A stretch of DNA of 64,000 nt from Candidatus Dojkabacteria bacterium (GCA_041678505.1 JBAYOB010000001.1:1667-65666); one strand, 5' to 3'. Counted from the first letter of the stretch, positions 11,556 through 59,943 are shown. The notes: a model not told the origin generated them from the letters alone. Numbers and translations are program-made.

Positions 11556-12434
11556 ATGGCTCACAAAACATTATCAATACAATTAAATCAAAGCGAGGTA
11601 GAGAGAGTAAGGGAAGTACTTTTGAGTAATGACTGGTCTGAGGATCCAATCGTTAATGAGTATGTTAATTTAAGGATGAAGAGTAAGAAAGGTTCTGTAT
11701 GTACTCTGTACACTAGTATGAAGGTTGTATTCCAAGGTAATGAGGATTTCTCAAGGATAGTAGAGGATATTAAGAGAAAAGAGGATGTAATACCTAGGTT
11801 AGGAGTAGATGAGGTGGGAAAAGGAGACTATTTTGGACCACTGGTAATCGTAGCCTGTTTTGTTAACAATGAGTTCTTAAAGAAATATAATACGTTAGGA
11901 ATAGGTGATTCCAAAGACTTCTCAGATAGTAAGATAGAAAGGATGTATGAGAGCTTAAAAAGTTACAAGCACTATTACACATCCACCATATACCCTGGGG
12001 AGTATAATGAGTTGTATGGACAATATGGAAATGTAGCTGTGCTTTTAGCAAAGCAACACTCTAAGGTAATTGAGATGGGATTAAAAGATTTAAAACAGAA
12101 AAAGATAGATTGTAAAAGAGTAGTGGTAGATCAATTTTCATCTAAAAAAACTCGTATTACAGATGAATTAGGTCCTTTAGCATTGAGCGAAGAGGTGGAG
12201 TTTGTACAGTTCCATAAAGGAGAATCAGATATTGCCATAGCAAGTGCCTCTATTTTAGCTAGAGGTATCTTTTTGAGAGAGATGGATAAAATGAAGAAAG
12301 AGTATTACTTTGATTTTCCAAAAGGAGCATCTAATGTCATTACCTCTGCTAAAGAGTTTGTTAAGAAATACGGTGTAGACGAGCTAGAAAAGGTTGCAAA
12401 GGTTAGCTTTAAAACAACAAAAAGGGTTATTTAG
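11556..12434 (+). CDS. rnhC: Ribonuclease HIII (RNase HII-family catalytic domain with an N-terminal extension)
   Basis: The catalytic motif is 'GVDEVGKGDYFGPLVIVACFV', preceded by an ~80-aa N-terminal domain. At 292 aa it is typical of RNase HIII. Confidence 0.7.
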   Translation: MAHKTLSIQLNQSEVERVREVLLSNDWSEDPIVNEYVNLRMKSKKGSVCTLYTSMKVVFQGNEDFSRIVEDIKRKEDVIPRLGVDEVGKGDYFGPLVIVACFVNNEFLKKYNTLGIGDSKDFSDSKIERMYESLKSYKHYYTSTIYPGEYNELYGQYGNVAVLLAKQHSKVIEMGLKDLKQKKIDCKRVVVDQFSSKKTRITDELGPLALSEEVEFVQFHKGESDIAIASASILARGIFLREMDKMKKEYYFDFPKGASNVITSAKEFVKKYGVDELEKVAKVSFKTTKRVI

Positions 12435-13347
12435 ATTTTTTCTTTCTCTTTTTACCTCTGTTCTCTGTAAATGATTTAAGAAGTATTACGGCTAGTAATA
12501 TTGTAGCTCCTACAATTAGAGGTAAAATATAGTTAGGTTTCTGTTCAACCTCAAGTATTATGAAGTTTTCATCAATTCCATTGTAAAATCTTCCAATAGC
12601 TCTTTTGGTAGCAAATAGATCAGAAATATGGATAAATTCAACCTCAAGCTCTTCCTCTGTCATCTCTCCTGGGTACAGTTTTTCTTCTTCGTTATTTATC
12701 TTAATATATACAGGAGGATATTTACTATCTTCGTTAAATACCTGGATTTCCCCCATGGGAGAAAGTACGTAATTTGTAATGTTTTGATACAGATATTTAA
12801 CCTTCATAGGTCTTAGAAAAGGTATTCCTCTTTGTGTAATATCTAGATTAATTTGAGCAAAATCAGTGGATATACCAAAGACAGAATTCTCAGGATCAGC
12901 TATATGTAAGACAACTAAATGAGAAAGAGTATCTATTACACCTATGGGGGTGGATTCAGGTAGAAAGATATCTTCTTCTTGCTGTTGTAGCAAAATTAGA
13001 TTGAAATAGGTGCCAGGTTCCATATTTTGTGGTGGTATTATTTCAAAATCAAATACAGCAGTTTCATCTGATTTAACGGTAAAGATCTCTTTATCTACTC
13101 TTACAAATATTTCGCCACCCTCTTTTATCTCAACTTCTTTAGGGTCAAAAGAGTAGGGGATAGGGGTAATTTTAATGTCTTTCTTACCTTCATTTCTGAA
13201 AGAAAATTGTTCTTTTGTCCGTTCTTGGTTTGATATTAAAATCTCTGTTTTGTAAGGAAAGACCCTATTTGCATATGCTTTAGTACAGAAAGGCTGTATT
13301 AAAAACAGAACAAAAAATATTGTAAAAAAAACTCTCTTGTAATTCAT
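12427..13347 (-). CDS. Cell-surface protein with an N-terminal signal peptide and a C-terminal TM anchor plus basic tail (KKRKKKSK). It is a paralog of the 13357..14388 product.
   Basis: The signal peptide is 'FFTIFFVLFLIQPFCTKAYA'. The C-terminus reads 'YILPLIVGATILLAVILLKSF...RGKKRKKKSK'. It shares the motif 'SPMGEIQVFN' with 'TPMGDILLTN' in the neighbouring gene. Confidence 0.5.
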   Translation of the reverse strand: MNYKRVFFTIFFVLFLIQPFCTKAYANRVFPYKTEILISNQERTKEQFSFRNEGKKDIKITPIPYSFDPKEVEIKEGGEIFVRVDKEIFTVKSDETAVFDFEIIPPQNMEPGTYFNLILLQQQEEDIFLPESTPIGVIDTLSHLVVLHIADPENSVFGISTDFAQINLDITQRGIPFLRPMKVKYLYQNITNYVLSPMGEIQVFNEDSKYPPVYIKINNEEEKLYPGEMTEEELEVEFIHISDLFATKRAIGRFYNGIDENFIILEVEQKPNYILPLIVGATILLAVILLKSFTENRGKKRKKKSK

Positions 13348-13356
13348 TCGTGTAGA

Positions 13357-14388
13357 TTATTTAGGTAAGTATTCTTTTCTCTCCTCTTTCTTTCTCTTTC
13401 TTCTGTTAACCCATATGATGATGATAACAGTGATAACAAGTATTGCTATCAAGATATATTTCCAAGGTAACACCCAGAAAGAGGTTTCTGCTGTTAGAGG
13501 AGCAAAACCTGGTTGAGAAGCACGATAGGTTAACATTAAATCTGCTTTTATCGGACCTAGAATAAGTTTACGATCGGTAGTTAAGAAAGAACCGTAGTCC
13601 CAATCTGTCTCATATATACCCGTATTTTCTCTTAAGATACTCTGTCTAGCTGCATTAAATGTAATTGTTCCTACCTGTTGATTAAATATATTTGTTAGTA
13701 AGATATCTCCCATTGGAGTGATATGGGTATCTCCAATATTATTTAATTTTGTCTCAAACTTGATATTAGGAAATTCATAAAAGTTTCTATCTGTTTCAAA
13801 GCTTATTAATTCAGCTCTCTCTACAAATTCATCTCCTATTTTAATTAAGATAGGAGTTCCAGAGCCAAGTACAGTGAATGCTGCAGTACCAATGTTTTCA
13901 TATTCTGTTTCAGAGAGGAAAGCAATAATTACATAGTACTCTCCTTTGGTAGCACCTAAAGGAACATCTATACTGTAGAATATTTTTTCGTTTTTGTTTG
14001 GAACTAAGTCTATCTCTTCTCTACTAACTGTAACCCAGGAGGAAGCAGAGTAGAGTGTTCTTTCTTCTTCAGATTCTGTAAGCATAATGGCAGTACCAGG
14101 TTGGTTTTGTACTTGTCTAAAGCCTCTAATAACAACGTGATATTTAGTAGATTTCTCAGACAGATTCCATATTACTATCTCTCCTTCATGTCTATCTCCT
14201 GGCTGTAATTGTAATTTCTCTGATGCAGGTGCTCTTCCAATGGTGAGTGGATACTGTGCAAAGAGAAGAGTTTTAAAAAAAGACAGAAAAAGGACTACTG
14301 TCAGTAGTGATACAAGGGTTGTTTTTTTACTTAACCATGGGACAGGGTGTAGTTTTTCTTTTTTCATAATTAATAATAGCCACCACAA
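13357..14388 (-). CDS. Cell-surface protein with a signal peptide and a C-terminal TM anchor plus basic tail. It is a paralog of the 12427..13347 product.
   Basis: It has an N-terminal hydrophobic signal. The C-terminus reads 'WVLPWKYILIAILVITVIIIIWVNRRKRKKEERK'. Confidence 0.5.
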   Translation of the reverse strand: MWWLLLIMKKEKLHPVPWLSKKTTLVSLLTVVLFLSFFKTLLFAQYPLTIGRAPASEKLQLQPGDRHEGEIVIWNLSEKSTKYHVVIRGFRQVQNQPGTAIMLTESEEERTLYSASSWVTVSREEIDLVPNKNEKIFYSIDVPLGATKGEYYVIIAFLSETEYENIGTAAFTVLGSGTPILIKIGDEFVERAELISFETDRNFYEFPNIKFETKLNNIGDTHITPMGDILLTNIFNQQVGTITFNAARQSILRENTGIYETDWDYGSFLTTDRKLILGPIKADLMLTYRASQPGFAPLTAETSFWVLPWKYILIAILVITVIIIIWVNRRKRKKEERKEYLPK

Positions 14389-15530
14389 ACAAATGTAACA
14401 GTTTCTTCATATTGTCCTGGGACGGCAGAAGCCCCAGCTCTAGCTCCGTATGTAATGGTAGAGGTTGATAGGGCAGATTGGTCTGACTCTTTGTAAAGCA
14501 AGAGTTGCGCACCAGTAAGACCACTAACACCTAAGGTACCAAATTGTCCAACAGTTCCAGCAGCAAATTTACTTACAACAGTTCCCGAACCTCCTGGAGT
14601 TGGAGAAGATGCAGTTAGACCAAAACCTTCCACACCGAAACCCGTTAACGCTATAGTATTACCTCCAGGATTTGAAGTTATTAGATAGTCATTTGTCCCT
14701 GGAGTGTCATCATGGAAGAGACCGGAATCTGATCCATTGCCTTGACCATATACAACCCAGTAGTAACCCTCAGTATTGGCCGTTTGTATTGTTATATTAT
14801 GATTTCCTGTAACATAGGGTCCTGTTGGATACATTGTACCTAGGTCTACAGTATTGTTACTGATAGCACAGGTAACAGATGGGATTTCTTCAACTTCTGC
14901 AGTTATGGTAACCTGGTCTTCTTCTAGAAGTTTAAATCTAAATATACCAAAATCTAAATTATTACCCTGTTCTAATTCAACGAGGATAGGAGAGTAATCA
15001 GAGGTTTCATTTCCTGTCCCCAGTCTTCCCTCACCACTTTTGTTAGATAACTTAACACCATAACTAGTAGCTGTTTGTAATGCAGTAATACCAGTAATCA
15101 CAATCTTATCAGGATCATTAGGAGTAGAACTACCTTGAGAACAGCTAGCTGAAAGTGTGCCTGGTAGAGCTGTAGTTATGGACCAATCAGAACCTGCACC
15201 TGGAGCATCCGCTGCTGAAGAAGTTACACCTGCTGCAGTTAAACCACCTGCATTTCTACACCATTCCCCATTCTGATCATCGGGGAAATATATAGTTATA
15301 GTACCACCAGTAGCGAAAGCTTGGTTAGTACGAAATTCAAGTACAAATTCTACTTCATTTCCTGCAGTACCGTCTAAATCTGCTTCCATCCTACTTGTGT
15401 AGAAGTACAGAGCTTGAAATCTCCCACGAGCAGCAAAACTTTTAAAAGAAGGCAAGAGAAAAGATACTGTCAGTATACTCAAAACAAAGACAAGAACAGA
15501 GATAAATAACCTCTTTTTATTATTTTCCAT
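14370..15530 (-). CDS. Secreted Gly/Thr/Ser-rich protein, hypothetical. It is a paralog-like partner of the 15597..16802 product.
   Basis: It has the signal peptide 'LFISVLVFVLSILTVSFLLPSFKSFAA'. The composition is low-complexity G/T/S-rich and the C-terminus ends ...CGGYY. Confidence 0.5.
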   Translation of the reverse strand: MENNKKRLFISVLVFVLSILTVSFLLPSFKSFAARGRFQALYFYTSRMEADLDGTAGNEVEFVLEFRTNQAFATGGTITIYFPDDQNGEWCRNAGGLTAAGVTSSAADAPGAGSDWSITTALPGTLSASCSQGSSTPNDPDKIVITGITALQTATSYGVKLSNKSGEGRLGTGNETSDYSPILVELEQGNNLDFGIFRFKLLEEDQVTITAEVEEIPSVTCAISNNTVDLGTMYPTGPYVTGNHNITIQTANTEGYYWVVYGQGNGSDSGLFHDDTPGTNDYLITSNPGGNTIALTGFGVEGFGLTASSPTPGGSGTVVSKFAAGTVGQFGTLGVSGLTGAQLLLYKESDQSALSTSTITYGARAGASAVPGQYEETVTFVCGGYY

Positions 15531-15596
15531 AACGAAAAGGCAGCATCTTTCAATTTAGTTGGTTAAAATGTACATGTAATATAATTTTTTGTCAAG

Positions 15597-16802
15597 CTAA
15601 TATCTGCCTACAGCAACCATAGTTATTTTCTCACCGTAATCATCTGCAGCACTCCTACTAACCCCTGCTCTTGCTTTCACATACATTCCCATTCGCCCAT
15701 TATTTATTGGTCCATCTGCATCATACATTCTAATTGCATTAGTTGATACTTTACCAACAGTATTACCACTTCCTGTGTAGCTTGTACTAGCTGTTATTTC
15801 TCCTAGGTATGAAGATATTTGATAATTAATATAATAATTTTGAAGACCAAATCCTTCTGTACCGAAAGAATCTAAATCTTTATCATCTGATTCTATTAAT
15901 TCAGTAGTTGTTGGACTGTATAATCCTCCATTTTCACCTGAGTGTATTATTGCAGCCCCTCCTGTTGCAGATGATATTAAGTCTAGCCATATTAAGCTAG
16001 GAGCAGTAACTGCGGGTGCAGATGGAAGGAGAGAGTGGTCTCCAATGAAGGAGATAATATATGGAGGCTGACTCTCTGCACTGTATCCCGTATCTGATGC
16101 AATATCTATATCAAAGAACAGAAACCCTATACCGGTCCTTGCAGAAGACACTATACTAAAATCTGATTGTGTAAAATCTCCATGAAGTGCAGTTATACGT
16201 AGGAAATACTCTGTATCAGAGTTTAAGTTTTTAATATTAAAGTCTTCATCTTCCCAGTATTGTTGCGTTCTAAAATCATTAATATCACAACTACTCAATA
16301 TTTTAGGTCTGAATGTAGAGCCATCTATACATCTAACATCAGAAATGAAATCATCTTCAGATATTTGAATCATGTAGAGAGTGTCAAAAGGGTTCTGTTG
16401 TTCTTCTATCTCAAATCTAGCCTTGTCATAGCATCCTCCAGGACCACATATCGCTACCATACCACCTCCTGTTAATTCTTGAGGTCCAGACACACAATCA
16501 GTAGTACCATCAGTATCAGTCTCAAAACATCTGATACCAGGCTGTGCTGCTCTAAATCTAGCTGATGGATCCTGATCTAATCTGTAATTAGCAGAATATA
16601 CTCTAGGATCTGCAGATATTCTCCCAATTGTAGATAGTATGGAGTATTCAGAAGATTCCAATATACCACCACCGCCTCCAGTAGAAACACCAATCATCTT
16701 AAAGTTAGGAGACTCTAATTCGTTACTTAGCACTACACCTGTAGATACCAAGAGTAGGGAGAGCATAAATATGGATACTTTTAATATGTTGGCAGTTTTC
16801 AT
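15597..16802 (-). CDS. Secreted protein, hypothetical
   Basis: It has the signal peptide 'ILKVSIFMLSLLLVSTGVVLS'. It is Gly-rich with several Cys pairs and ends ...AVGRY. Confidence 0.5.
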   Translation of the reverse strand: MKTANILKVSIFMLSLLLVSTGVVLSNELESPNFKMIGVSTGGGGGILESSEYSILSTIGRISADPRVYSANYRLDQDPSARFRAAQPGIRCFETDTDGTTDCVSGPQELTGGGMVAICGPGGCYDKARFEIEEQQNPFDTLYMIQISEDDFISDVRCIDGSTFRPKILSSCDINDFRTQQYWEDEDFNIKNLNSDTEYFLRITALHGDFTQSDFSIVSSARTGIGFLFFDIDIASDTGYSAESQPPYIISFIGDHSLLPSAPAVTAPSLIWLDLISSATGGAAIIHSGENGGLYSPTTTELIESDDKDLDSFGTEGFGLQNYYINYQISSYLGEITASTSYTGSGNTVGKVSTNAIRMYDADGPINNGRMGMYVKARAGVSRSAADDYGEKITMVAVGRY

Positions 16803-16864
16803 ATGTGCAATGATATTGTAAATTATATTAGTTAGTCAAATTTTGATATAATTCTACTGCTTTT

Positions 16865-16951
16865 GGAGAGGTGCCAGAGCGGTCGAATGGGACGGTCTTG
16901 AAAACCGTTGTACAGGTTCCTGTACCGAGGGTTCGAATCCCTCCCTCTCCG
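16865..16951 (+). tRNA. tRNA-Ser (anticodon TGA), with a long variable arm
   Basis: The acceptor GGAGAGG pairs with CCTCTCC. The anticodon stem ACGGT/ACCGT flanks the loop CTTGAAA, giving anticodon UGA. A long variable arm TGTACAGGTTCCTGTAC and a T-arm GGTTCGAATCC follow. It closely resembles E. coli tRNA-Ser(UGA). Confidence 0.85.
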
Positions 16952-16985
16952 TAGTATTAATCTATATAAATTAAAAGTTCTTTTT

Positions 16986-17894
16986 ATGGATAAGAAAATA
17001 TCTCTTTTAGTGTTAGCAGCAGGTATGGGTAGTAGGTATGGAGGGTTAAAACAGATGGAAGGTTTCGGTCCGAATGAGGAGACAATAATAGATTACTCTA
17101 TATATGATGCTATAAAAGCGGGTATTGAAAAGTTTGTCTTCATAATAAGAGAGGAGATGGAGGATGATTTTAAGGAGCTGTTTGTGAAGAAGTATGAGAA
17201 GAGAATCGATATACAGTATATTTTCCAAAGTTTAGATATGGTTCCTGATTGGTACAAGGTAAATCCTGAAAGAGTTAAACCTTTAGGTACAGGACATGCT
17301 CTGTTAGTGGCAAAAGATATAATTAAAGAACCTTTCCTAGTAATTAATGGAGATGATTTCTATGGTAATCACTCTTTTAAAGTATCAGCTGATTTCCTAA
17401 AAAAGGAGTGCACAGAGGAATTGTATGCAATTACTACATACAGGTTAGAAAATGTATTAAGTGAACACGGTACTGTAAAGAGAGGAATATGTAAGGCAGA
17501 GGATAACTATTTAAAAGAGATAGATGAAACTTTTGAAATAGCCAGAGAGAAAGATGGAAAGATTACTGGAAAAAGTTGGAATGGAGATAGGGTGAGGTTG
17601 AGAGATAATGATTTGGTTTCAATGAATATGTTCTGTTTACATCATACTATTTTTGATTCTCTGGAAAGGAGATTTGAGGCTTTCCTAAAGGATAATGAAG
17701 ATGAGTTAGAAGGAGAGTTTCTGCTTTCAATGATACTAAGTAATATGATTAATGATGGTGAGGTTAAATTTAAAGTACTTGAGGCTTTAGATGAATGGTT
17801 TGGTGTTACATATCCAGAGGATGGTCCAGTAGTAAGAGAGAAGATAAAGGATTTAGTTGAAAAATCGGTGTATCCATCTAATCTAGAAATTTAG
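16986..17894 (+). CDS. Sugar-phosphate nucleotidyltransferase (NTP-transferase fold)
   Basis: The N-terminal motif 'LLVLAAGMGSRYGG' matches the LAAG.G.R nucleotidyltransferase signature. The start was re-set to 16986 to avoid overlapping the tRNA. Confidence 0.6.
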   Translation: MDKKISLLVLAAGMGSRYGGLKQMEGFGPNEETIIDYSIYDAIKAGIEKFVFIIREEMEDDFKELFVKKYEKRIDIQYIFQSLDMVPDWYKVNPERVKPLGTGHALLVAKDIIKEPFLVINGDDFYGNHSFKVSADFLKKECTEELYAITTYRLENVLSEHGTVKRGICKAEDNYLKEIDETFEIAREKDGKITGKSWNGDRVRLRDNDLVSMNMFCLHHTIFDSLERRFEAFLKDNEDELEGEFLLSMILSNMINDGEVKFKVLEALDEWFGVTYPEDGPVVREKIKDLVEKSVYPSNLEI

Positions 17895-17930: not shown

Positions 17931-19571
17931 GTGTTGATTATGAAAAAAATAAAGAAAAAAGATAGTTTTGACAGTAAAAACCCTTACAAGCCAAAAGACA
18001 GAGAGGGTGGGTTTCCTTCTGATATGCCGTATTTCCAAAGAAGGTTCTTTGAAACCTTACCGGGTATATTTACTTGGACACTACTTCTCTTACCTGTAAT
18101 ATTTGCACTGTTAAGGTGGAATATTGCTTTGGTAATATACATATCATTCTTGGTCGCATATTGGCTCTTTAGAACAATCAAGTTTGTTGTAGGGATATAT
18201 TTTGGTGTTAAAAGAATGGAGAAAGAGAAGAAAATAGATTGGGTAGGAGAGATAGAAAAATTAAATTCAGATAAGTTAGCAGATTTAAGATATATCTATC
18301 TTTGTCCTGTGTATGGAGAAAGTATGGATATCTTAGATCCATCTTTTAAAGCTTGGTCAAAGAGTGACATTGGTCCAGAAAAGATTGATGTTGTTATGGC
18401 TATTGAAGAAGCAAAAAAGGATTTACAGGTGAAGAATTTTAATGTGTTAAAGAAGAAATATGGGAGTAAGTTTGGTAGTATGAGATACTATGTCCATCCA
18501 TCAGGAATACCAGGAGAAATAGTTGGTGTTAAGGGAGCAAATATTAACTATGCTGCAAGGGAGTTGGTAAAGGATTTGGAAAAAGAAGGTAAAGATATAT
18601 CTAACTATTTAGTTGCAACATGTGATTCAGATTTAAGGCCCCATCCCAAGTATCTTTCTGCTATTACATACAGGTATTTGACGGCTGAGGAGCCTTTAAA
18701 CACCTTTTATGCATCTGCTGTACACTCATTTAACAATAATATTTGGAATGTACCTCCAATAATTAGGACTCAATCCAATATGTTGACTTTGGTAGTCCTT
18801 CATTTCTGGGCTATTGATAAGACAATCAAAATACCATTTACAGGAGAAACAGTGTACAGGAAAGATACTTTCTCTTCATATGTTGTAAATCTGAAAACTT
18901 TGAAAGAAATAGAGTTTTGGGATCCAGAGATCCCCAATGACGATACAGCTTTTTACTGGAATTCTGCATTAAGAAGTAAAGGGAAATTTAAGAGTCAGGA
19001 AGTATATATTCCAACATATAATGACGCTGTAGAAAACAAGACCTTTATAAAATCACACATATCTTTTTACAAACAGCAGTACAGATGGGGTTGGGGTATT
19101 ATTAACTTCCCAATATCACTTGCAGTTCTCTCCCATGATAAAGAGAATTTCCCTGTTCACAGGAAAATACTTCTTGCAAAAATGATGGTAGAGTACCTAT
19201 GGTTCCTAACCGTTGTCTTTGTTCTTACCTTTGGTCTTAATATAATGGGATGGTTAAATCCTACATATCAATACACAGTATTTTCATATAATCTCCCTCG
19301 AATCCTTAGCTATATTTTTTCCTTAATAATGCTTTCTAATGTTGGAATAGTGATATCTAGAAGGAAAATAACTCCTGTCCCAAAAGATTGGAAGTGGTGG
19401 AGGCATGTATTAGATTTCTTCGAGACATTTTTAATAGCACTAAATATGATTACATTCTCATTTATTCCATATATGCAAGCTATTACTGAGATGATGTTGG
19501 GAAGAAGTAAGTTCAGGCGTAATTTTTATGTTACAGAGAAGGTTAGGATAGAGAAAGAGGAGAACAAGTAA
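17931..19571 (+). CDS. Membrane-embedded processive family-2 glycosyltransferase (cellulose/chitin/hyaluronan-synthase-like)
   Basis: It has the DxD-type motif 'ATCDSDLRP' and the QxxRW signature 'QQYRWGWG'. It has 2 N-terminal and several C-terminal TM helices. Confidence 0.65.
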   Translation: MLIMKKIKKKDSFDSKNPYKPKDREGGFPSDMPYFQRRFFETLPGIFTWTLLLLPVIFALLRWNIALVIYISFLVAYWLFRTIKFVVGIYFGVKRMEKEKKIDWVGEIEKLNSDKLADLRYIYLCPVYGESMDILDPSFKAWSKSDIGPEKIDVVMAIEEAKKDLQVKNFNVLKKKYGSKFGSMRYYVHPSGIPGEIVGVKGANINYAARELVKDLEKEGKDISNYLVATCDSDLRPHPKYLSAITYRYLTAEEPLNTFYASAVHSFNNNIWNVPPIIRTQSNMLTLVVLHFWAIDKTIKIPFTGETVYRKDTFSSYVVNLKTLKEIEFWDPEIPNDDTAFYWNSALRSKGKFKSQEVYIPTYNDAVENKTFIKSHISFYKQQYRWGWGIINFPISLAVLSHDKENFPVHRKILLAKMMVEYLWFLTVVFVLTFGLNIMGWLNPTYQYTVFSYNLPRILSYIFSLIMLSNVGIVISRRKITPVPKDWKWWRHVLDFFETFLIALNMITFSFIPYMQAITEMMLGRSKFRRNFYVTEKVRIEKEENK

Positions 19572-19637: not shown

Positions 19638-20747
19638 ATGTTTTTTCTAATAATTTTCTTTTTACTTTTGTTGTCAGTAACTCCTGTTAAGGCAGATATG
19701 TTTTGTACAACCTATGATGGTGCTTTAAATGCTTTTGCTCAAACAGTGTCATTGTCAATATCAAAGCTACCTGCACAGGATGATATAGAGTATGAGGTTA
19801 CAGATGTACTTGGTTCTTCAACAGATTATGTGTTTGAGAATTATACAATTTATGATTTAACCAGTGATAATGAGCACCAACATAGATATCCGCAAGTGTT
19901 AGATAGAGTAGAGGTTCCTCCTAATACGGATGTCGATCTGGCATATTTCTATAGAAATCGTACTGGACACGATGTCAGAATATTTAAAATAGGTATGTTT
20001 TTTAGTAAAGAAGATATAGGAGATGGTGATTGGACAGGCGTATTAGATATTGAAGAATCAGGATTACCGTGGGATATGATTAATCTTCTTTACCAAGGGA
20101 AAATGCTGTATAGAGAAGGGTTCTACAAAGAGTATCAAGGGTTAGGTATTGTACCAAAAGATATGTTCAGTGCTTTTGTACTTGATACTTTGAAAGTTTC
20201 AGATCCTCTGTCTATTAAAGATTTGAAATATGAGAAAAATGGAGAACTTTTAGATTTTTCAATTACTGTGGTTAATAGTGGTAATCAAGATTTAAATAAT
20301 TTGGAATTAAAACATGAGGGCATTATTAAAGAATTTTCCATATCAGCAAAAGATGAAATCTCTCTCCAGTACAGTGTGAGTAATACTGAAAGTATCTTTA
20401 AAGAAGGTCTTTTTAAAATATATAATCCTAATAGTCGGACAGAGTGTATAATACCAGGGAATGATCATTCTAGTACAAACAGGATGAGTGTAGCGACAGT
20501 ATTTACTCTTAGAGAGCAAGGATGGGTACACGGTGCATATAAATTGCCTGAGGAACGGAGTTTCTGTATTACGAGAATACCGTACACACGTGTACATAGA
20601 TTCTCAGAGCATCAAGAAGAAAAAGAGAGTGATGCTATAGAAGATGGTGTAAAACAGGAAGAAGATGAAGTACTGAGTGAAGTGTTGGGGGTAGTAAGTG
20701 AGAGTAGAGATATTCTTACACTACCCAAAACAGGTAAAATATATTAG
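19638..20747 (+). CDS. Secreted protein with a signal peptide and the C-terminal motif LPKTG at the extreme C-terminus (…TLPKTGKIY*)
   Basis: The signal peptide is 'MFFLIIFFLLLLSVTPVKA'. LPKTG lies 3 residues from the stop and no hydrophobic anchor follows it. Confidence 0.55.
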   Translation: MFFLIIFFLLLLSVTPVKADMFCTTYDGALNAFAQTVSLSISKLPAQDDIEYEVTDVLGSSTDYVFENYTIYDLTSDNEHQHRYPQVLDRVEVPPNTDVDLAYFYRNRTGHDVRIFKIGMFFSKEDIGDGDWTGVLDIEESGLPWDMINLLYQGKMLYREGFYKEYQGLGIVPKDMFSAFVLDTLKVSDPLSIKDLKYEKNGELLDFSITVVNSGNQDLNNLELKHEGIIKEFSISAKDEISLQYSVSNTESIFKEGLFKIYNPNSRTECIIPGNDHSSTNRMSVATVFTLREQGWVHGAYKLPEERSFCITRIPYTRVHRFSEHQEEKESDAIEDGVKQEEDEVLSEVLGVVSESRDILTLPKTGKIY

Positions 20748-55302: not shown

Positions 55303-58300
55303 CTAATTTGCATCATTAATGATAGAGTAGAATGCATGTAGAATGTATGTTAGTTTTTCTCCCTCTTCATGTTGTTCTGTGGTACTAGTAGTATTTAAGT
55401 CCGGATGAGCTCTTTTTAGTATATTGATATATACCTTACGCCAATCTTTAAACTGTGATCTCTGTTTTCTAATTAAAAAGATTTTTTCCGCTTCAGTAAG
55501 AGATGAAGGGCCATTATCTAGTAGTTTTGCAAGAATCTGTATGGGCAAATTCCTTACTGTTTCAAGAAAATTATATGACTGCTGTTCAATAGGGTCTGAA
55601 GAGTCTTTATTAAATCCCCAAAATGGGTCATATTTCTGTTCTGGTTGTTCATGTTCAGACTGTTCAGAGGATGCCGAGTCTCCATCTGTAAAGTTTCCTT
55701 TATATCTGAGATATTCCTGTATTATTGGAATTTTACTAATATAGTTTTCGTACATGTCTACATAAAGCCCGTTCCTTAGTCCAGGATTTCCATATCCTTC
55801 TGCTTGTGATTCGTATTCGAATGCTGGAGTTATTAAATCTCCTCCTTTAATCCAATTTCTATGCAGTCCAGTAGAAGTAATATTTCCTTCTTCATGAATT
55901 CCTCCTATCCAAACTCTACCTTTTGTATCCTTGTAGAGCGTGTATCTTAAAGAATTATCGTTAGAGGGATAGACTTCAACTGTAACTTCACCACCATAAA
56001 AAAGGCTCCTTTGACTCCATGTGTCAATGAGATTGGAATAGTTAGGAGACTCTTCTTCGGTAAGTACTAATTCTTCTGGAGGTACTTTTTCATTTGAGCC
56101 TGTTGTATAAGGGAAGTTCTTGAGTTCTCTAGGGTTTTCGTTTATCTCTTGATAATAAGAGTACTTCTCAGATTCCGTGTTATTTACCTGATTGTATTTT
56201 GTTCCTAGTCTTGCAGTACCGGCAAAAACGAATTCAGCATCATCTATTGCTAGAATAGAATTTTCATCCTTTGTTATCTCTGATAAGGCTTTACTTATTG
56301 GAATTGGAAGCCCAAGGCTTTCTTCACTCCATCCCTTACCATACCATCCAATAGAACTGTTATCATTTGGGTCAAGACTGTAGTAAGGCAATAGTCTCCA
56401 TGTGGCAGAAGAGTTGCTAAGATAATAAGATCTTGCATAAACCTTATCTTCCTGTTCTACATATGCTACAACAGCCAAGCGGTTACCCATAATTCTGTAT
56501 GCTGATGAGGATAACCATATTACAGAGTTTTCCATGTTTATTCTGTATTTTGGTGATAAACCTTTCTCTCTTAATATCTCTGCAGTTAAGGTTTTTCCCT
56601 GATATAGATCACCTTCTATTATTACTTTGTCTAATATTCTCTCTGCGTCATCACTTTCCAATGTATGGATACCATAAGCTATTTCACCTTGTGTAAAAGG
56701 AGAATCCTCCAAAACTTGTTCTGGAGTGCTACTTTGATACGATTGCTCAGAAGATGTAATTTCTTCATCAAGAGGTATATTTCCTACAAAAGAACCCGCC
56801 TCTTCTTCTTTTATACGTAGAATTCTTTGAGCTAACACTCTACTAGTTATTATTTCTCTTTCCTCTATAGGTTTCATTGTGCCCCACTCTACCCAAGTAC
56901 TGTTTTCCTTAATACCAGATTGTACTTTTTGGAATCCACCATTATTGCCATGAGGGAAAAGGTTTATTCTTCTTCTACCTCTTTGTCCGTCGGCAGAAGA
57001 GATATTATCTAGTACATTTGTAAGTACTTCTATTTTAGTGTCATTTTCTTGAGAAAGAAGTGTATCAACTAGGTCCTCTATCTCAATTGGTTGGCTATCC
57101 ATAAACCATCCTAAATTAGTAAGTGTAAAAGAGTGATTACCCATTATAAATATCTGTCCGTTAGGCATAAATTTATAGTTCTTATCTGTATAATCTTTTC
57201 CAAAAACCTGTGTAATAAGTATTTCTCTAGTGTATTCTTCAAGTAGAGGGTCTACAGGCTCAGGTTTGGGGATTTCAACATTTAATTCAGGTATAGATAA
57301 AATAGTTTCTCTAATAATTCTTCCTTCTTTAGCTGGGAAAAGAGATGCTATAGCTAAAGATGAAGTAATACCTAATGTGTTTAGTGTAAGATTGGGAGTA
57401 GTATCCACCAATGTTGTTAGGTCTATAGAATCTACAGTGGCTTCAAAATTAAAATTAATTCCAGGGGAACTTTGGGTTATCGTTTGTCCAGGGGATGAAG
57501 CAGGGAAATTAACAGGTAGCCCATTGTTAAGTTGTTGTAACCATCTCATTACTGTGGGAGAATTTGTTATTTCAAATTGTTCAGCAGGTTGTACAGGATT
57601 GTTTAGTCCAAATTCAGTTCTAATATTTGCATCATTAATATTATGCCCCCCTCCATCTCTATACAAAAAATTTTGTAACTCATGTTTTTCTCCCTGCATG
57701 TTAGGGTTGTACTCTTTTGCTACGGTGAGGATCTTATCGAGCAAGGATGGCACAGAATCTCCTGTCTCTACCTTAATAATGGAAGAGCTTGGTGTCCCTT
57801 CTGTGACAGAAATAGATTCAGATCCAGGGATACTAGATAGTTGTGCAAGGTTAATATTGTGTGCAGTACCGTTAATCTGAACAACAGTATCTCCGTTAGC
57901 TTGTATGTTTGAGATAGACATAGATGCTGTGGAACCATCACTCATTGATGCTTTCAATGCACCGGTCAATTGTGATTGATTCATAATGGAAAGGTTCCCA
58001 CTACTGTCGGAGTGAATTATTCCTACTACTTCTCCCTGTTGTCCTACTATTGTTCCCATTATTCCTGTATTTGAACCTGTAAACTCAGAAACAGATACTT
58101 TCCCAAAGCCAGGGTTTTGAATTTCAAAAAGTTTTTCAGCCCCAACAGTGTTCTTAGCATAGAATTCATTAGTATTAGGGACATGTACTAAATCAGCAGC
58201 CCCATCTCCATCTAGATCGATTAGATTTACATCTCTCCCTGTGTGGTCTTTGTATTGGGACACATTTGCATTTTGATTATTTAATGCATTTCTATACTGA

Positions 58301-59943
58301 TCTCGTACTAAGTTTTGATTCTTTTGAATTTCTATTTGCCCTACTCCCGAATGGATTAATTTCCCAGCAGCAATAGATGTAAATGTTAAGTTTGCAAGAG
58401 TATTTCCTGTTTTGATCCCTAATGTCTTGTTGACTAAATCAAAGTAGGTGCTTCTTTCATTAGAAAGTAGGTTCTCTACATCAGTTGCTTCCAAACTTAC
58501 AAATTTGGTTATTATCTCTACTGCAAGTTTTTTCCTGTCATCTTCAGCACTGTTGTTCCATGCCTCAGATGTTAAATTGATAAGCTCTTCATTATCAAGG
58601 GTATCTATAAAGCTTTCGATATTAATACCTATAATTTCCTCCATAGGGTATTCCTGAGTACTTGTTGGTAAATCACGAAAACCTATATTAGTTATATCTA
58701 CTTCCTTTCTGATGTCGTTTCCTTGATTATCTTTTTCTGTATAATGTACATATTTATATTTAGGATCACCTGTTTGTTTATATAGATAGTTAAGTGCGGC
58801 TATAGCTGTTTTCTGAGCTGTTTTTACTTCATCTGGAGATAAATTGGGATCTTGTATGTCGCTAATAACTTTACTGATATCTATACCCTCTCTCTTAACA
58901 TACCCTAAATTTTTAAGTTTGTTATATCTTCTCTGTTCAAAGGAATTCAAATACGAATCTAATAGTTCTTGTTGCTTTTTATTTAAATCACTTTCTAGTT
59001 TTGCTTGCATCCCAATTTCTATTGCAGTAGAACCTACTACCATAGCGATAGGTAATGCTGGTCCTACACCGGGTATTAAAGCAGGAAGTAACATTCCAGC
59101 ACCTCCCTTCATAAGACCTGATACCGCAAGACCTGTAGCTACTCCTTTTAAAAACCCCTTATCTTTTATCAATTCAGAAACAGTTTTCCCTTGTTCTTTA
59201 GCTGATATTTTCATTCCTTCATAGACTTTATATGCAGTGTAACCACCAAGCCCTAACATTATGGCTCCAGCTCCTATGGCCCCTGCAGGTCCTAGGGTTG
59301 CTATGGCTAAGCCTGTTCCTTTTGCTACTGCAAGAGAACCAGCTACAGATATTCCTATTTGGGATACTAAACCCTTCCATCTCTGTCCTGAAAACATTCT
59401 CTTAATAGTTGCAAAATATCCATTATTTGTTTTACCAGCCTCTTCGATTTCTTTCTTTTCTTCTTGCGAAAGAGGAACTAGAGCATTTGCTCTTTCTACG
59501 ATGACCGTATTTATTTGTTCTGTTTGATTGGATATATCTTGTTCAGGAGTGTCTTGTTGCTCCTCCATAGGTCTAGGATCTCCGGTCAAAGCAATATCTA
59601 CAGCACTTCTTATTAAATTAGAGTCAGAACTTTCCTCTGGTATAGCTGTGTTTGTTTCATCAGGAGTATCTTGTTGCCCCTCCATGGGTCTAGGACCTCC
59701 GGCCATAGCAATATCTATAGCACTTCTTATTAAATTAGGGTCAGAACTTTCCTCTGGTATAGCTGTGTTTGTTTCATCAGGAGTATCTTGTTGCTCCTCC
59801 ATAGGTCTAGGACCTCCGGCCATAGCAATATCTACAGCACTTCTTATCAAATTAGAATCAGAGCTTTCCTCTGGTATAGGTGTAGAGATATTTCCTTCAG
59901 AAGGAGTCTCGTCTTCTCTACTGTTTCCTATTTCTGGGTCCAT
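55303..59943 (-). CDS. Giant (1546 aa) repeat-containing membrane-associated protein, hypothetical. It has N-terminal tandem 39-aa repeats, Gly/Ala-rich hydrophobic helices and a C-terminal J-domain-like segment.
   Basis: It is an uninterrupted ORF. The N-terminus carries three copies of the 'NTAIPEESSD.NLIRSA.DIAMAGGPRPME.QQDTPDET' repeat. Hydrophobic stretches include 'GISVAGSLAVAKGTGLAIATLGPAGAIGAGAIMLGLGG'. The C-terminus reads 'YINILKRAHPDLN...EKLTYILHAFYSI', which contains an HPD motif. Confidence 0.55.
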   Translation of the reverse strand: MDPEIGNSREDETPSEGNISTPIPEESSDSNLIRSAVDIAMAGGPRPMEEQQDTPDETNTAIPEESSDPNLIRSAIDIAMAGGPRPMEGQQDTPDETNTAIPEESSDSNLIRSAVDIALTGDPRPMEEQQDTPEQDISNQTEQINTVIVERANALVPLSQEEKKEIEEAGKTNNGYFATIKRMFSGQRWKGLVSQIGISVAGSLAVAKGTGLAIATLGPAGAIGAGAIMLGLGGYTAYKVYEGMKISAKEQGKTVSELIKDKGFLKGVATGLAVSGLMKGGAGMLLPALIPGVGPALPIAMVVGSTAIEIGMQAKLESDLNKKQQELLDSYLNSFEQRRYNKLKNLGYVKREGIDISKVISDIQDPNLSPDEVKTAQKTAIAALNYLYKQTGDPKYKYVHYTEKDNQGNDIRKEVDITNIGFRDLPTSTQEYPMEEIIGINIESFIDTLDNEELINLTSEAWNNSAEDDRKKLAVEIITKFVSLEATDVENLLSNERSTYFDLVNKTLGIKTGNTLANLTFTSIAAGKLIHSGVGQIEIQKNQNLVRDQYRNALNNQNANVSQYKDHTGRDVNLIDLDGDGAADLVHVPNTNEFYAKNTVGAEKLFEIQNPGFGKVSVSEFTGSNTGIMGTIVGQQGEVVGIIHSDSSGNLSIMNQSQLTGALKASMSDGSTASMSISNIQANGDTVVQINGTAHNINLAQLSSIPGSESISVTEGTPSSSIIKVETGDSVPSLLDKILTVAKEYNPNMQGEKHELQNFLYRDGGGHNINDANIRTEFGLNNPVQPAEQFEITNSPTVMRWLQQLNNGLPVNFPASSPGQTITQSSPGINFNFEATVDSIDLTTLVDTTPNLTLNTLGITSSLAIASLFPAKEGRIIRETILSIPELNVEIPKPEPVDPLLEEYTREILITQVFGKDYTDKNYKFMPNGQIFIMGNHSFTLTNLGWFMDSQPIEIEDLVDTLLSQENDTKIEVLTNVLDNISSADGQRGRRRINLFPHGNNGGFQKVQSGIKENSTWVEWGTMKPIEEREIITSRVLAQRILRIKEEEAGSFVGNIPLDEEITSSEQSYQSSTPEQVLEDSPFTQGEIAYGIHTLESDDAERILDKVIIEGDLYQGKTLTAEILREKGLSPKYRINMENSVIWLSSSAYRIMGNRLAVVAYVEQEDKVYARSYYLSNSSATWRLLPYYSLDPNDNSSIGWYGKGWSEESLGLPIPISKALSEITKDENSILAIDDAEFVFAGTARLGTKYNQVNNTESEKYSYYQEINENPRELKNFPYTTGSNEKVPPEELVLTEEESPNYSNLIDTWSQRSLFYGGEVTVEVYPSNDNSLRYTLYKDTKGRVWIGGIHEEGNITSTGLHRNWIKGGDLITPAFEYESQAEGYGNPGLRNGLYVDMYENYISKIPIIQEYLRYKGNFTDGDSASSEQSEHEQPEQKYDPFWGFNKDSSDPIEQQSYNFLETVRNLPIQILAKLLDNGPSSLTEAEKIFLIRKQRSQFKDWRKVYINILKRAHPDLNTTSTTEQHEEGEKLTYILHAFYSIINDAN
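59543..59893. repeat. Three tandem, near-identical 117-bp direct repeats encoding the N-terminal 39-aa repeats of the giant protein
   Basis: Copies start at 59543, 59660 and 59777 ('tcaggagt.tcttgttgc.cctccat.ggtctagga.ctccgg...'). Only a few substitutions separate the copies. Confidence 0.8.

Follow-up and report, generated by a model that had tools for sequence, protein, structure and literature searches.

A probable minimal and divergent Pam-type pilus operon conserved in Candidatus Dojkabacteria

Background

A large share of the diversity of bacteria falls to the candidate phyla radiation (CPR). A host-attached lifestyle is assumed for its members, yet their attachment machinery is mostly unannotated. 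Here we describe four consecutive, co-directional open-reading frames (ORFs) located on the minus strand at positions 12427-16802 of a 64-kb stretch of DNA from a Candidatus Dojkabacteria bacterium (GCA_041678505.1 JBAYOB010000001.1:1667-65666). This stretch of 64,000 nucleotides, from the first letter of which all positions are counted, is called the window below. The four genes are transcribed in the order ORF4, ORF3, ORF2 and ORF1, and they are compared here with the described surface systems that they resemble most.

The closest of these is the Pam pilus, known from ultra-small bacteria of the CPR and reported for Candidatus Mycosynbacter amalyticus (Saccharimonadia, CPR) by Troman et al., 2026 (bioRxiv 10.64898/2026.03.03.709456). 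Its components are the pilins PamA/B/E/T, the chaperones PamC (WP_260763277.1) and PamD (WP_260763284.1), and the tether PamR (WP_260763282.1). The Pam pilins were found experimentally to form filaments and polymerise by donor-strand exchange, with the highest conservation in the linker that is donated and in the site that binds it. Based on AlphaFold and FoldSeek, PamC and PamD are predicted to be PapD/FimC-like chaperones that carry both a signal peptide and, at the C-terminus, a transmembrane (TM) helix, and PamR is predicted to be an RbmA-like, TM-anchored tether of 32.8 kDa with two Fn3-like domains. In the proteomics table of the same preprint, 'pamC' is given as QHN42421.1, a protein of 119 kDa whose accession is far from those of the pam operon (QHN4327x); this entry does not seem to agree with how the text describes PamC.

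Another anchored protein, WxLIP, is encoded by the csc/WxL clusters of Lactobacillales and Bacillales. It consists of DUF916/PF06030 and DUF3324/PF11797 domains and a TM helix (PMC10599100; PDB 9i1y), and a strand of WxLIP is predicted to be inserted into the partner protein (PMC10599100). Neither WxL/DUF916 nor Dojkabacteria is mentioned in the Pam preprint (bioRxiv 10.64898/2026.03.03.709456). As described below, the four Dojkabacteria genes probably constitute a minimal, divergent Pam-type pilus operon, a reading to which we give a probability of roughly 0.7.

The secreted proteins ORF3 and ORF4

Family alignments for ORF3 (A1), ORF2 (A2), ORF4 (A3) and ORF1 (A4) were built from database matches together with the corresponding loci of 59 related species-level Dojkabacteria genomes. 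Comparison of the resulting profiles shows that ORF3 and the C-terminal domain of ORF4 are homologous to curated Pam pilins. ORF3 (14370-15530, minus strand, 386 amino acids) carries a signal peptide followed by a two-domain Pam-type pilin, and it aligns with positions 3-148 of the 148 positions of the NCBIfam model NF058581 (CPR_Pam_pilin_C) at 14.5 bits (cutoff 55; E = 0.029). The same model is matched by 27 of 85 ORF3 orthologs (best E = 7.9e-8). An exhaustive profile search with A1 retrieved 217 relatives, and among 53 distant ones 34 match NF058581 (best E = 6.5e-42) and eight match PamT. The bridge is the database protein P0282, which scores 143 bits on NF058581 and matches the ORF3 profile over its full length at E = 3.5e-38; this establishes the homology of ORF3 to the Pam pilins. 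A hidden Markov model (HMM) made from the distant Pam-type pilins matches ORF4 at E = 8.5e-17, and the PamT model NF058579 is matched by five of the 41 members of the ORF4 family (best E = 8.6e-6).

The first-pass annotation of the window, made by a model from the sequence alone, had regarded the products of the cluster as paralogous surface proteins. For ORF3 and ORF4, where pairwise BLASTP gives no support (E = 0.04), this holds for one domain only: hhalign finds homology confined to the C-terminal domain (82%, E = 1e-5, 154 columns), whereas the N-terminal domains and the cross-domain controls reach at most 2.2%. The database proteins P0342 and P0371 bridge the two families by matching both HMMs across the C-terminal domain, in which the motifs GLY..I.S..L..EGFGL..ARAG..Y.E.I....Y-stop occur in the same order in both.

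The AlphaFold2 (AF2) model of ORF3 (mean predicted local distance difference test score, pLDDT, 92.3) is all-beta with two domains (residues 35-199 and 218-385) and matches the reported two-domain architecture of the Pam pilins. In the monomer, segment 203-217 between the domains is extended and unpaired, with no strand assigned by DSSP. Its first part, the linker of residues 203-213 (EEDQVTITAEV; 14892..14924, minus strand; family consensus ADDQVSVTATV), is the predicted donor strand. In the distant family, with ORF3 itself excluded, the two most conserved 11-residue windows correspond to residues 369-379, in the region of the C-terminal strand, and to the linker at 203-213, which thus ranks second across the distant Pam-type pilins. 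This agrees with the pattern that the preprint describes for the Pam donor strand and the site to which it binds. The C-terminal pilin domain (residues 218-386; 14373..14879, minus strand) has invariant cysteines C221 and C382 and ends in VTFVCGGYY. A Foldseek search of the ORF3 model against the PDB returned generic tandem immunoglobulin (Ig) matches with low TM-scores, the copy of the PDB that was searched being without the Pam entries 25PZ/25QA. Searches of PDB sequences with phmmer and hmmsearch (ORF3, and the ORF1, ORF2 and ORF4 profiles) gave noise only, with no WxLIP and no Pam entry. The curli chaperone model CsgC (NF007507) is weakly matched by 21 of the 85 ORF3 orthologs (best E = 8.6e-6), and one member of the pilin family matches Pfam Tafi-CsgC; these matches probably reflect a shared Ig-like fold with a disulfide.

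ORF4 (15597-16802, minus strand, 401 amino acids) consists of a signal peptide, a lineage-specific, cysteine-containing domain at the N-terminus and, at the C-terminus, a pilin domain of the Pam type (about residues 240-401; 15600..16085, minus strand). The aromatic ends that had been described for the two proximal products are confirmed (...GGYY in ORF3 and ...VGRY in ORF4) and are a family trait, as nearly all ORF3 and ORF4 homologs end in Tyr or Phe, including 40 of 41 ORF4 orthologs. Between the two domains of ORF4 lies the segment FFDIDIA (residues 229-235; 16098..16118, minus strand), in which F230, D231 and D233 are invariant and hydrophobic residues alternate; judged from this sequence pattern, it may serve as the donor strand. 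For the N-terminal domain no relative was detected in Pfam, NCBIfam or the PDB, and four of its cysteines (C92, C103, C119 and C124) are invariant. They are preceded by the mature N-terminus (residues 27-75), which is among the most conserved parts of the protein and contains three repeats of the form S-x-N-[FY]-x-[LIM] (SPNFKM, SSEYSI and SANYRL; family consensus STNYKI, STNYS.L and STNYRL), separated by a glycine run.

The anchored proteins ORF2 and ORF1

ORF2 was first called at 13357-14388 (minus strand), as a protein of 343 amino acids starting from TTG. Because the identical database protein P0121 (336 amino acids) begins at the ATG at 14367, we take this as the true start, which gives ORF2 the coordinates 13357..14367 and leaves a gap of two nucleotides behind ORF3. 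Its signal peptide is followed by two beta-sandwich domains of the Ig-like kind, and the protein closes with a TM helix and a basic tail. ORF1 (12427-13347, minus strand) encodes 306 amino acids. A hydropathy scan found that each of the four proteins has a hydrophobic segment at its N-terminus and that only ORF2 (295-324) and ORF1 (270-295) have a C-terminal one, each followed by a polybasic tail (RRKRKKEERK and KKRKKKSK, respectively), so that the signal peptides and the tailed membrane anchors of the two distal products, as reported in the first-pass annotation, stand. The anchors are family traits: the TM helix of ORF2 (residues 302-331; 13375..13464, minus strand) is present in 68/68 family members and that of ORF1 (12463..12540, minus strand) in 52/52, and with the CPR-wide family described below the C-terminal TM segment is found in 237/237 members.

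The shared motifs TPMGDILLTN and SPMGEIQVFN had been taken as a sign that ORF1 and ORF2 are paralogs. Pairwise BLASTP does not support this (E = 0.2), but the two families align over their whole length (hhalign, 96.5%, E = 9.4e-10, 287 columns, 17% identity) and these motifs are in register. On this profile evidence, ORF1 is a remote paralog of ORF2 that shares its architecture and evolves faster. Identities among orthologs are 29-72% for ORF1 and 44-81% for ORF2, and the faster evolution of ORF1 fits functional divergence after duplication.

That Ig-like or pilin folds might be found here had also been suggested, and two beta domains in ORF3 and two beta-sandwich domains in ORF2 were indeed predicted by AF2. 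The model of ORF2 (pLDDT 83) shows a signal helix, beta-sandwich domains at residues 43-152 and 170-299, and the C-terminal TM helix. At the fold level it matches a PapD-like domain (score 10.5), RbmA (10.5) and the chaperone-usher chaperones CfaA, CupB2, EcpB, SafB and YadV (9.0-9.7), and many generic Ig domains match at similar scores. PF06030 (DUF916/WxLIP_PGBD) is matched by 67 of 68 ORF2 orthologs, every one of them below the gathering score. A Pfam scan of the ORF1 family gave no consistent family, and no NCBIfam model identified the ORF2 family as Pam chaperones.

A connection to Pam comes from the locus of P0282 (L060), in which the gene directly after the Pam pilin matches the HMMs of ORF2 (7.9e-15) and ORF1 (8.1e-13). 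It belongs to a CPR-wide family of proteins of about 325 amino acids, whose profile aligns with that of the ORF2 family at 99.8% (E = 7.9e-29) and with that of the ORF1 family at 98.0% (E = 1.6e-13). Among its members 37 of 117 match PF06030, and one already bears the name 'DUF916 domain-containing protein'. The module that recurs in most of 49 metagenome loci around relatives of P0282 is a pilin gene with an ORF2-like gene immediately behind it; among these loci only a Dojkabacteria-type contig has the full four-gene arrangement. The conservation of this adjacency across the CPR argues for a functional pair. Judging from the models and profiles, ORF2 is a candidate membrane-anchored, strand-complementing partner of the pilins, either a PamC/D-like chaperone or a PamR-like tether or both, possibly within the DUF916/WxLIP superfamily, and ORF1 is a candidate second chaperone or tether; in its gross architecture PamR is like both ORF1 and ORF2.

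Conservation of the locus

Among the relatives recorded under an organism name, the nearest are hypothetical proteins from Candidatus Dojkabacteria and candidate division WS6 (CPR). Wherever the contig is long enough among the 59 loci, the order ORF4-ORF3-ORF2-ORF1 is followed by RNase HIII, CysRS and RecR, and the four-gene order is kept in about 50 other species-level genomes. ORF1 and ORF3 were each detected in 56/59 loci and ORF4 in 52/59. In the window, RNase HIII (11556-12434; RNase_HII and DUF3378) is convergent with ORF1, and tRNA-Ser(UGA) lies at 16864-16952 on the plus strand, divergent from ORF4; the flanks of the cluster hold RecR, CysRS, RNase HIII, tRNA-Ser, a nucleotidyltransferase, the CCA-adding enzyme and an RNase J-like protein. 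A comparison of the same tRNA-Ser locus in related genomes had been proposed; in 29 of the 30 loci inspected for it, tRNA-Ser(UGA) lies upstream of ORF4.

Since the cluster and both of its flanks are conserved in essentially all 59 loci, it is a conserved core locus of Dojkabacteria and not a mobile islet. The first-pass annotation had called its position a typical islet location; with the conserved synteny and the lack of any anomaly in GC content or composition at the cluster, the idea of an islet or of horizontal transfer was rejected. The annotation itself had named conservation as core in all relatives, with annotated functions, as evidence against its proposal, and the cluster was found to be core, without annotated functions. 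The four genes are a real, conserved and functionally coherent cluster, and its features go far beyond what chance would produce. To some extent, lineage-specific gene insertion occurs at the edges of this otherwise fixed arrangement: at one locus (L015) an insertion of about 1.3 kb separates ORF4 from ORF3, and 1-2 kb of extra sequence lies between tRNA-Ser and ORF4 at L015, L012, L019, L020 and others.

Gaps were compared in the 42 loci in which all four genes could be delimited. ORF3 and ORF2 are mostly separated by 2-31 nucleotides, and ORF2 and ORF1 usually by a few nucleotides or overlap, whereas the spacer between ORF4 and ORF3 is 73-197 nucleotides in 41 of the 42 loci and about 1.3 kb in the other. 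In the window this spacer (15531..15596) contains a promoter-like site, TTGACA-17-TACATT (15567-15595, minus strand; 10/12 positions match). Another, TTGACT-18-TATCAT (16810..16839, minus strand; also 10/12), precedes ORF4, and because its second hexamer stops eight nucleotides short of the ORF4 ATG it would imply a near-leaderless transcript. These are the two best promoter-like matches of the region and both sit in intergenic gaps on the strand of the operon; however, the scan counted no more promoter-like sites in the region than in shuffled sequences, and they are therefore weak evidence. No terminator was found between the four genes by the same scan. A spacer of at least 73 nucleotides in all relatives, together with the second promoter-like site, suggests separate control of ORF4 and of ORF3-ORF1.

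The operon as a proposed minimal Pam-type pilus

From the homology to the Pam system, we infer filament formation, donor-strand exchange, a division between chaperone and tether, an order of subunits and a biological role as follows. ORF4 and ORF3 would be pilins exported by the Sec pathway. ORF2 and ORF1, likewise Sec-exported and each with two Ig-like domains, would be anchored by their C-terminal TM helices on the outer side of the cytoplasmic membrane. After export, a beta-strand of an anchored ORF2 or ORF1 molecule would cap the open C-terminal domain of a pilin, until the linker strand of the next pilin displaced it by donor-strand exchange. Repetition of this step would build a linear, usher-less filament, which one of the anchored proteins would tether to the membrane. 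ORF4, with its unique N-terminal domain and PamT-like C-terminal domain, is the likelier tip, adhesin or specialised segment, although it may be a second shaft pilin, and ORF3 is the likelier shaft subunit. The probable role would be contact with a host cell or a surface. The phylogenetic range is consistent with restriction to the CPR, as named relatives come from Dojkabacteria/WS6, Parcubacteria, Pacebacteria, Gracilibacteria and Microgenomates metagenome-assembled genomes; one exception, P0464, is labelled Polynucleobacter sp. and is probably a mis-binned record.

Several points weigh against this reading. ORF3 fails the cutoff of NF058581 and ORF4 itself has no match to that model in the NCBIfam scan; the likeness to Pam runs through the curated models, the bridge P0282 and the description in the preprint, and not through direct comparison with PamA/B/C/D/R of M. 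amalyticus. The model of ORF2 is as close to RbmA, the PamR-like fold, as to the chaperones, and its PF06030 match reaches 19.3 bits against a threshold of 27.3. No separate PamR, PamE or PamT gene was found, the four paralogs being the only ones within the 64-kb window, and the cluster has no ATP-synthase or CorB neighbourhood there. Assembly by donor-strand exchange is a prediction carried over from Pam by homology, and the Pam system itself is described in a single preprint (bioRxiv 10.64898/2026.03.03.709456).

An analogy with the csc/WxL loci of Firmicutes had been drawn from the gene logic of the cluster, and part of it survives. In such a case ORF2 and ORF1 would be WxLIP-like adaptors displaying ORF3 and ORF4 as monomeric or oligomeric adhesins in a non-filamentous complex. 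The architecture of the anchored proteins and the PF06030 matches are in keeping with this, but those matches are sub-threshold in ORF2 and throughout the Dojkabacteria family, and the profile search against PDB sequences did not retrieve WxLIP. No WxL domain was found in 69 members of the secreted families (E <= 0.1) or among the proteins of the window (E <= 1), and DUF3324 was matched by one of 52 ORF1-family members (E = 0.04) and was not among the matches of the ORF2 family. Moreover, the lineage belongs to the CPR, not to Lactobacillales or Bacillales, and the partners are homologous to proteins shown experimentally to form filaments. The secreted proteins are Pam pilin homologs and the Pam system fits the gene logic better; we regard a WxL-like complex as unlikely.

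Alternatively, the secreted proteins could be non-polymerising coat proteins or adhesins and ORF1 and ORF2 unrelated anchored Ig proteins, the similarity to Pam reflecting only a shared Ig-like superfamily. Generic Ig domains do match the ORF2 model about as well as the chaperones do; however, the profile links to the Pam pilin (for ORF3) and to the family of its anchored neighbour (for ORF2) span the full length of the proteins, the adjacency of pilin and anchored protein is kept across the CPR, and the linker and the aromatic C-terminus are conserved, so that this explanation appears improbable. A sortase-assembled pilus of the Gram-positive type and a classical chaperone-usher pilus are scarcely credible and were rejected, as LPxTG and a C-terminal TM segment occur in 0/126 ORF3 and ORF4 homologs, the cluster of four genes (at most 401 amino acids each) has no sortase, usher-sized gene, PapD Pfam match or fifth gene, and the one nearby gene ending in LPKTG runs in the opposite direction and was detected in only 28/59 loci.

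We thus favour a minimal Pam-type pilus. All named database records found for the Dojkabacteria genes read 'hypothetical protein', which, together with scores below the NCBIfam cutoffs, indicates that current annotation misses these genes.

Neighbouring genes

The LPKTG gene (19638-20747, plus strand) encodes a secreted protein of 369 amino acids with weak matches to DUF11/DUF7507 repeats, and it ends in LPKTGKIY-stop, where no more than three residues come after the sortase-type motif. In many Dojkabacteria loci the orthologous protein has a normal hydrophobic segment and a basic tail behind its LPKTG, LPQTN or LPKTF, and the truncated tail is common to the lineage of the window and to L004, L005, L010 and L013. 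A predicted multi-pass membrane protein of 546 amino acids (17931-19571, plus strand), without a Pfam match, adjoins the nucleotidyltransferase gene (16986-17894) and is found near the cluster in 20/59 loci. This protein is possibly an envelope enzyme of a glycosyltransferase-like kind, an identity that would be interesting in view of the glycan-like modification on PamA (bioRxiv 10.64898/2026.03.03.709456). Elsewhere in the window, an ORF of 1546 amino acids (55303-59943, minus strand) has no detectable sequence relative among solved structures. In L060, the gene upstream of P0282 (1-1413) encodes tandem Fn3 or purple-acid-phosphatase-N-like repeats.

Comparison with known systems

Fibres assembled by donor-strand exchange without an usher are also formed by TasA of B. 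subtilis and by the environmental TLP-1a/b (PDB 9ikj, 9ikk), the latter probably from Bacteroidota, but their subunits have a single domain and N-terminal donor strands, and no sequence homology to TasA or TLP-1 was detected. The classical and archaic chaperone-usher pili (Pap/Fim, CFA/I, Csu and CupE) are similar in fold, the pilin model resembling CsuA/B, FimG/H/I, the pilin domain of PapG and CupE, and they share the conserved aromatic C-terminus of the pilin and the same presumed donor-strand logic. They differ in that the present system has no outer membrane or usher, that its chaperone-like proteins are membrane-anchored and not soluble, and that its donor strand would be an internal inter-domain linker and not an N-terminal extension; at the sequence level, Pfam scans gave no matches to PF00345, PF02753 or PF00419.

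WxLIP and ORF2/ORF1 have the same architecture of signal peptide and C-terminal TM anchor. The partners of ORF2/ORF1, however, are Pam-type pilins, with the WxL domain in 0/69, there is no DUF3324 signal, the PF06030 scores stay below the gathering threshold, and the phylum is different; furthermore, WxLIP is thought to display proteins on peptidoglycan, as opposed to polymerising a fibre. We tentatively suggest, as a possibility that falls short of an even chance, that the anchored Pam proteins of the CPR belong with the DUF916/WxLIP proteins of Firmicutes to a single superfamily of anchored chaperones or tethers that act by strand complementation, of which the Dojkabacteria operon would be a minimal, self-sufficient version. 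If so, the usher-less chaperone pathway would be an old and widespread solution of monoderm bacteria and WxL clusters would work on the same principle, while in Dojkabacteria the duplicated anchored protein would supply the chaperone and tether roles and the N-terminal domain of ORF4 a host-binding tip. The link in sequence and fold between the anchored proteins and DUF916/WxLIP, which is absent from the Pam preprint, suggests a testable mechanistic connection between the pili of the CPR and the WxL surface clusters, themselves poorly understood, that lactobacilli, enterococci and Listeria possess.

The Pam system remains the best counterpart. Both systems are restricted to the CPR, consist entirely of Sec-exported components encoded in a single operon, and are without an usher or other trans-envelope machine. 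In ORF3, as in the Pam pilins, a conserved linker joins an N-terminal beta-sandwich to a truncated Ig domain that carries paired cysteines and lies at the C-terminus. ORF1 and ORF2, like the PapD/FimC-like chaperones encoded in the Pam operon, combine two beta-sandwich domains with a signal peptide and a TM helix at the C-terminus. On the other hand, the Dojkabacteria locus has four genes only, its PamT-like domain sits behind the novel N-terminal domain of ORF4, and its proteins score below the NCBIfam cutoffs. Its genomic context is tRNA-Ser and RNase HIII-CysRS-RecR in place of ATP-synthase/CorB, and it is known here from genes alone, whereas Pam filaments have been observed in M. amalyticus. 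A system first described in Saccharimonadia would thus have a divergent four-gene version that is core and syntenic in another class, Dojkabacteria. The minimal module, a pilin followed by an anchored protein with two Ig domains, is widespread in the CPR and offers a simple target for heterologous reconstitution.

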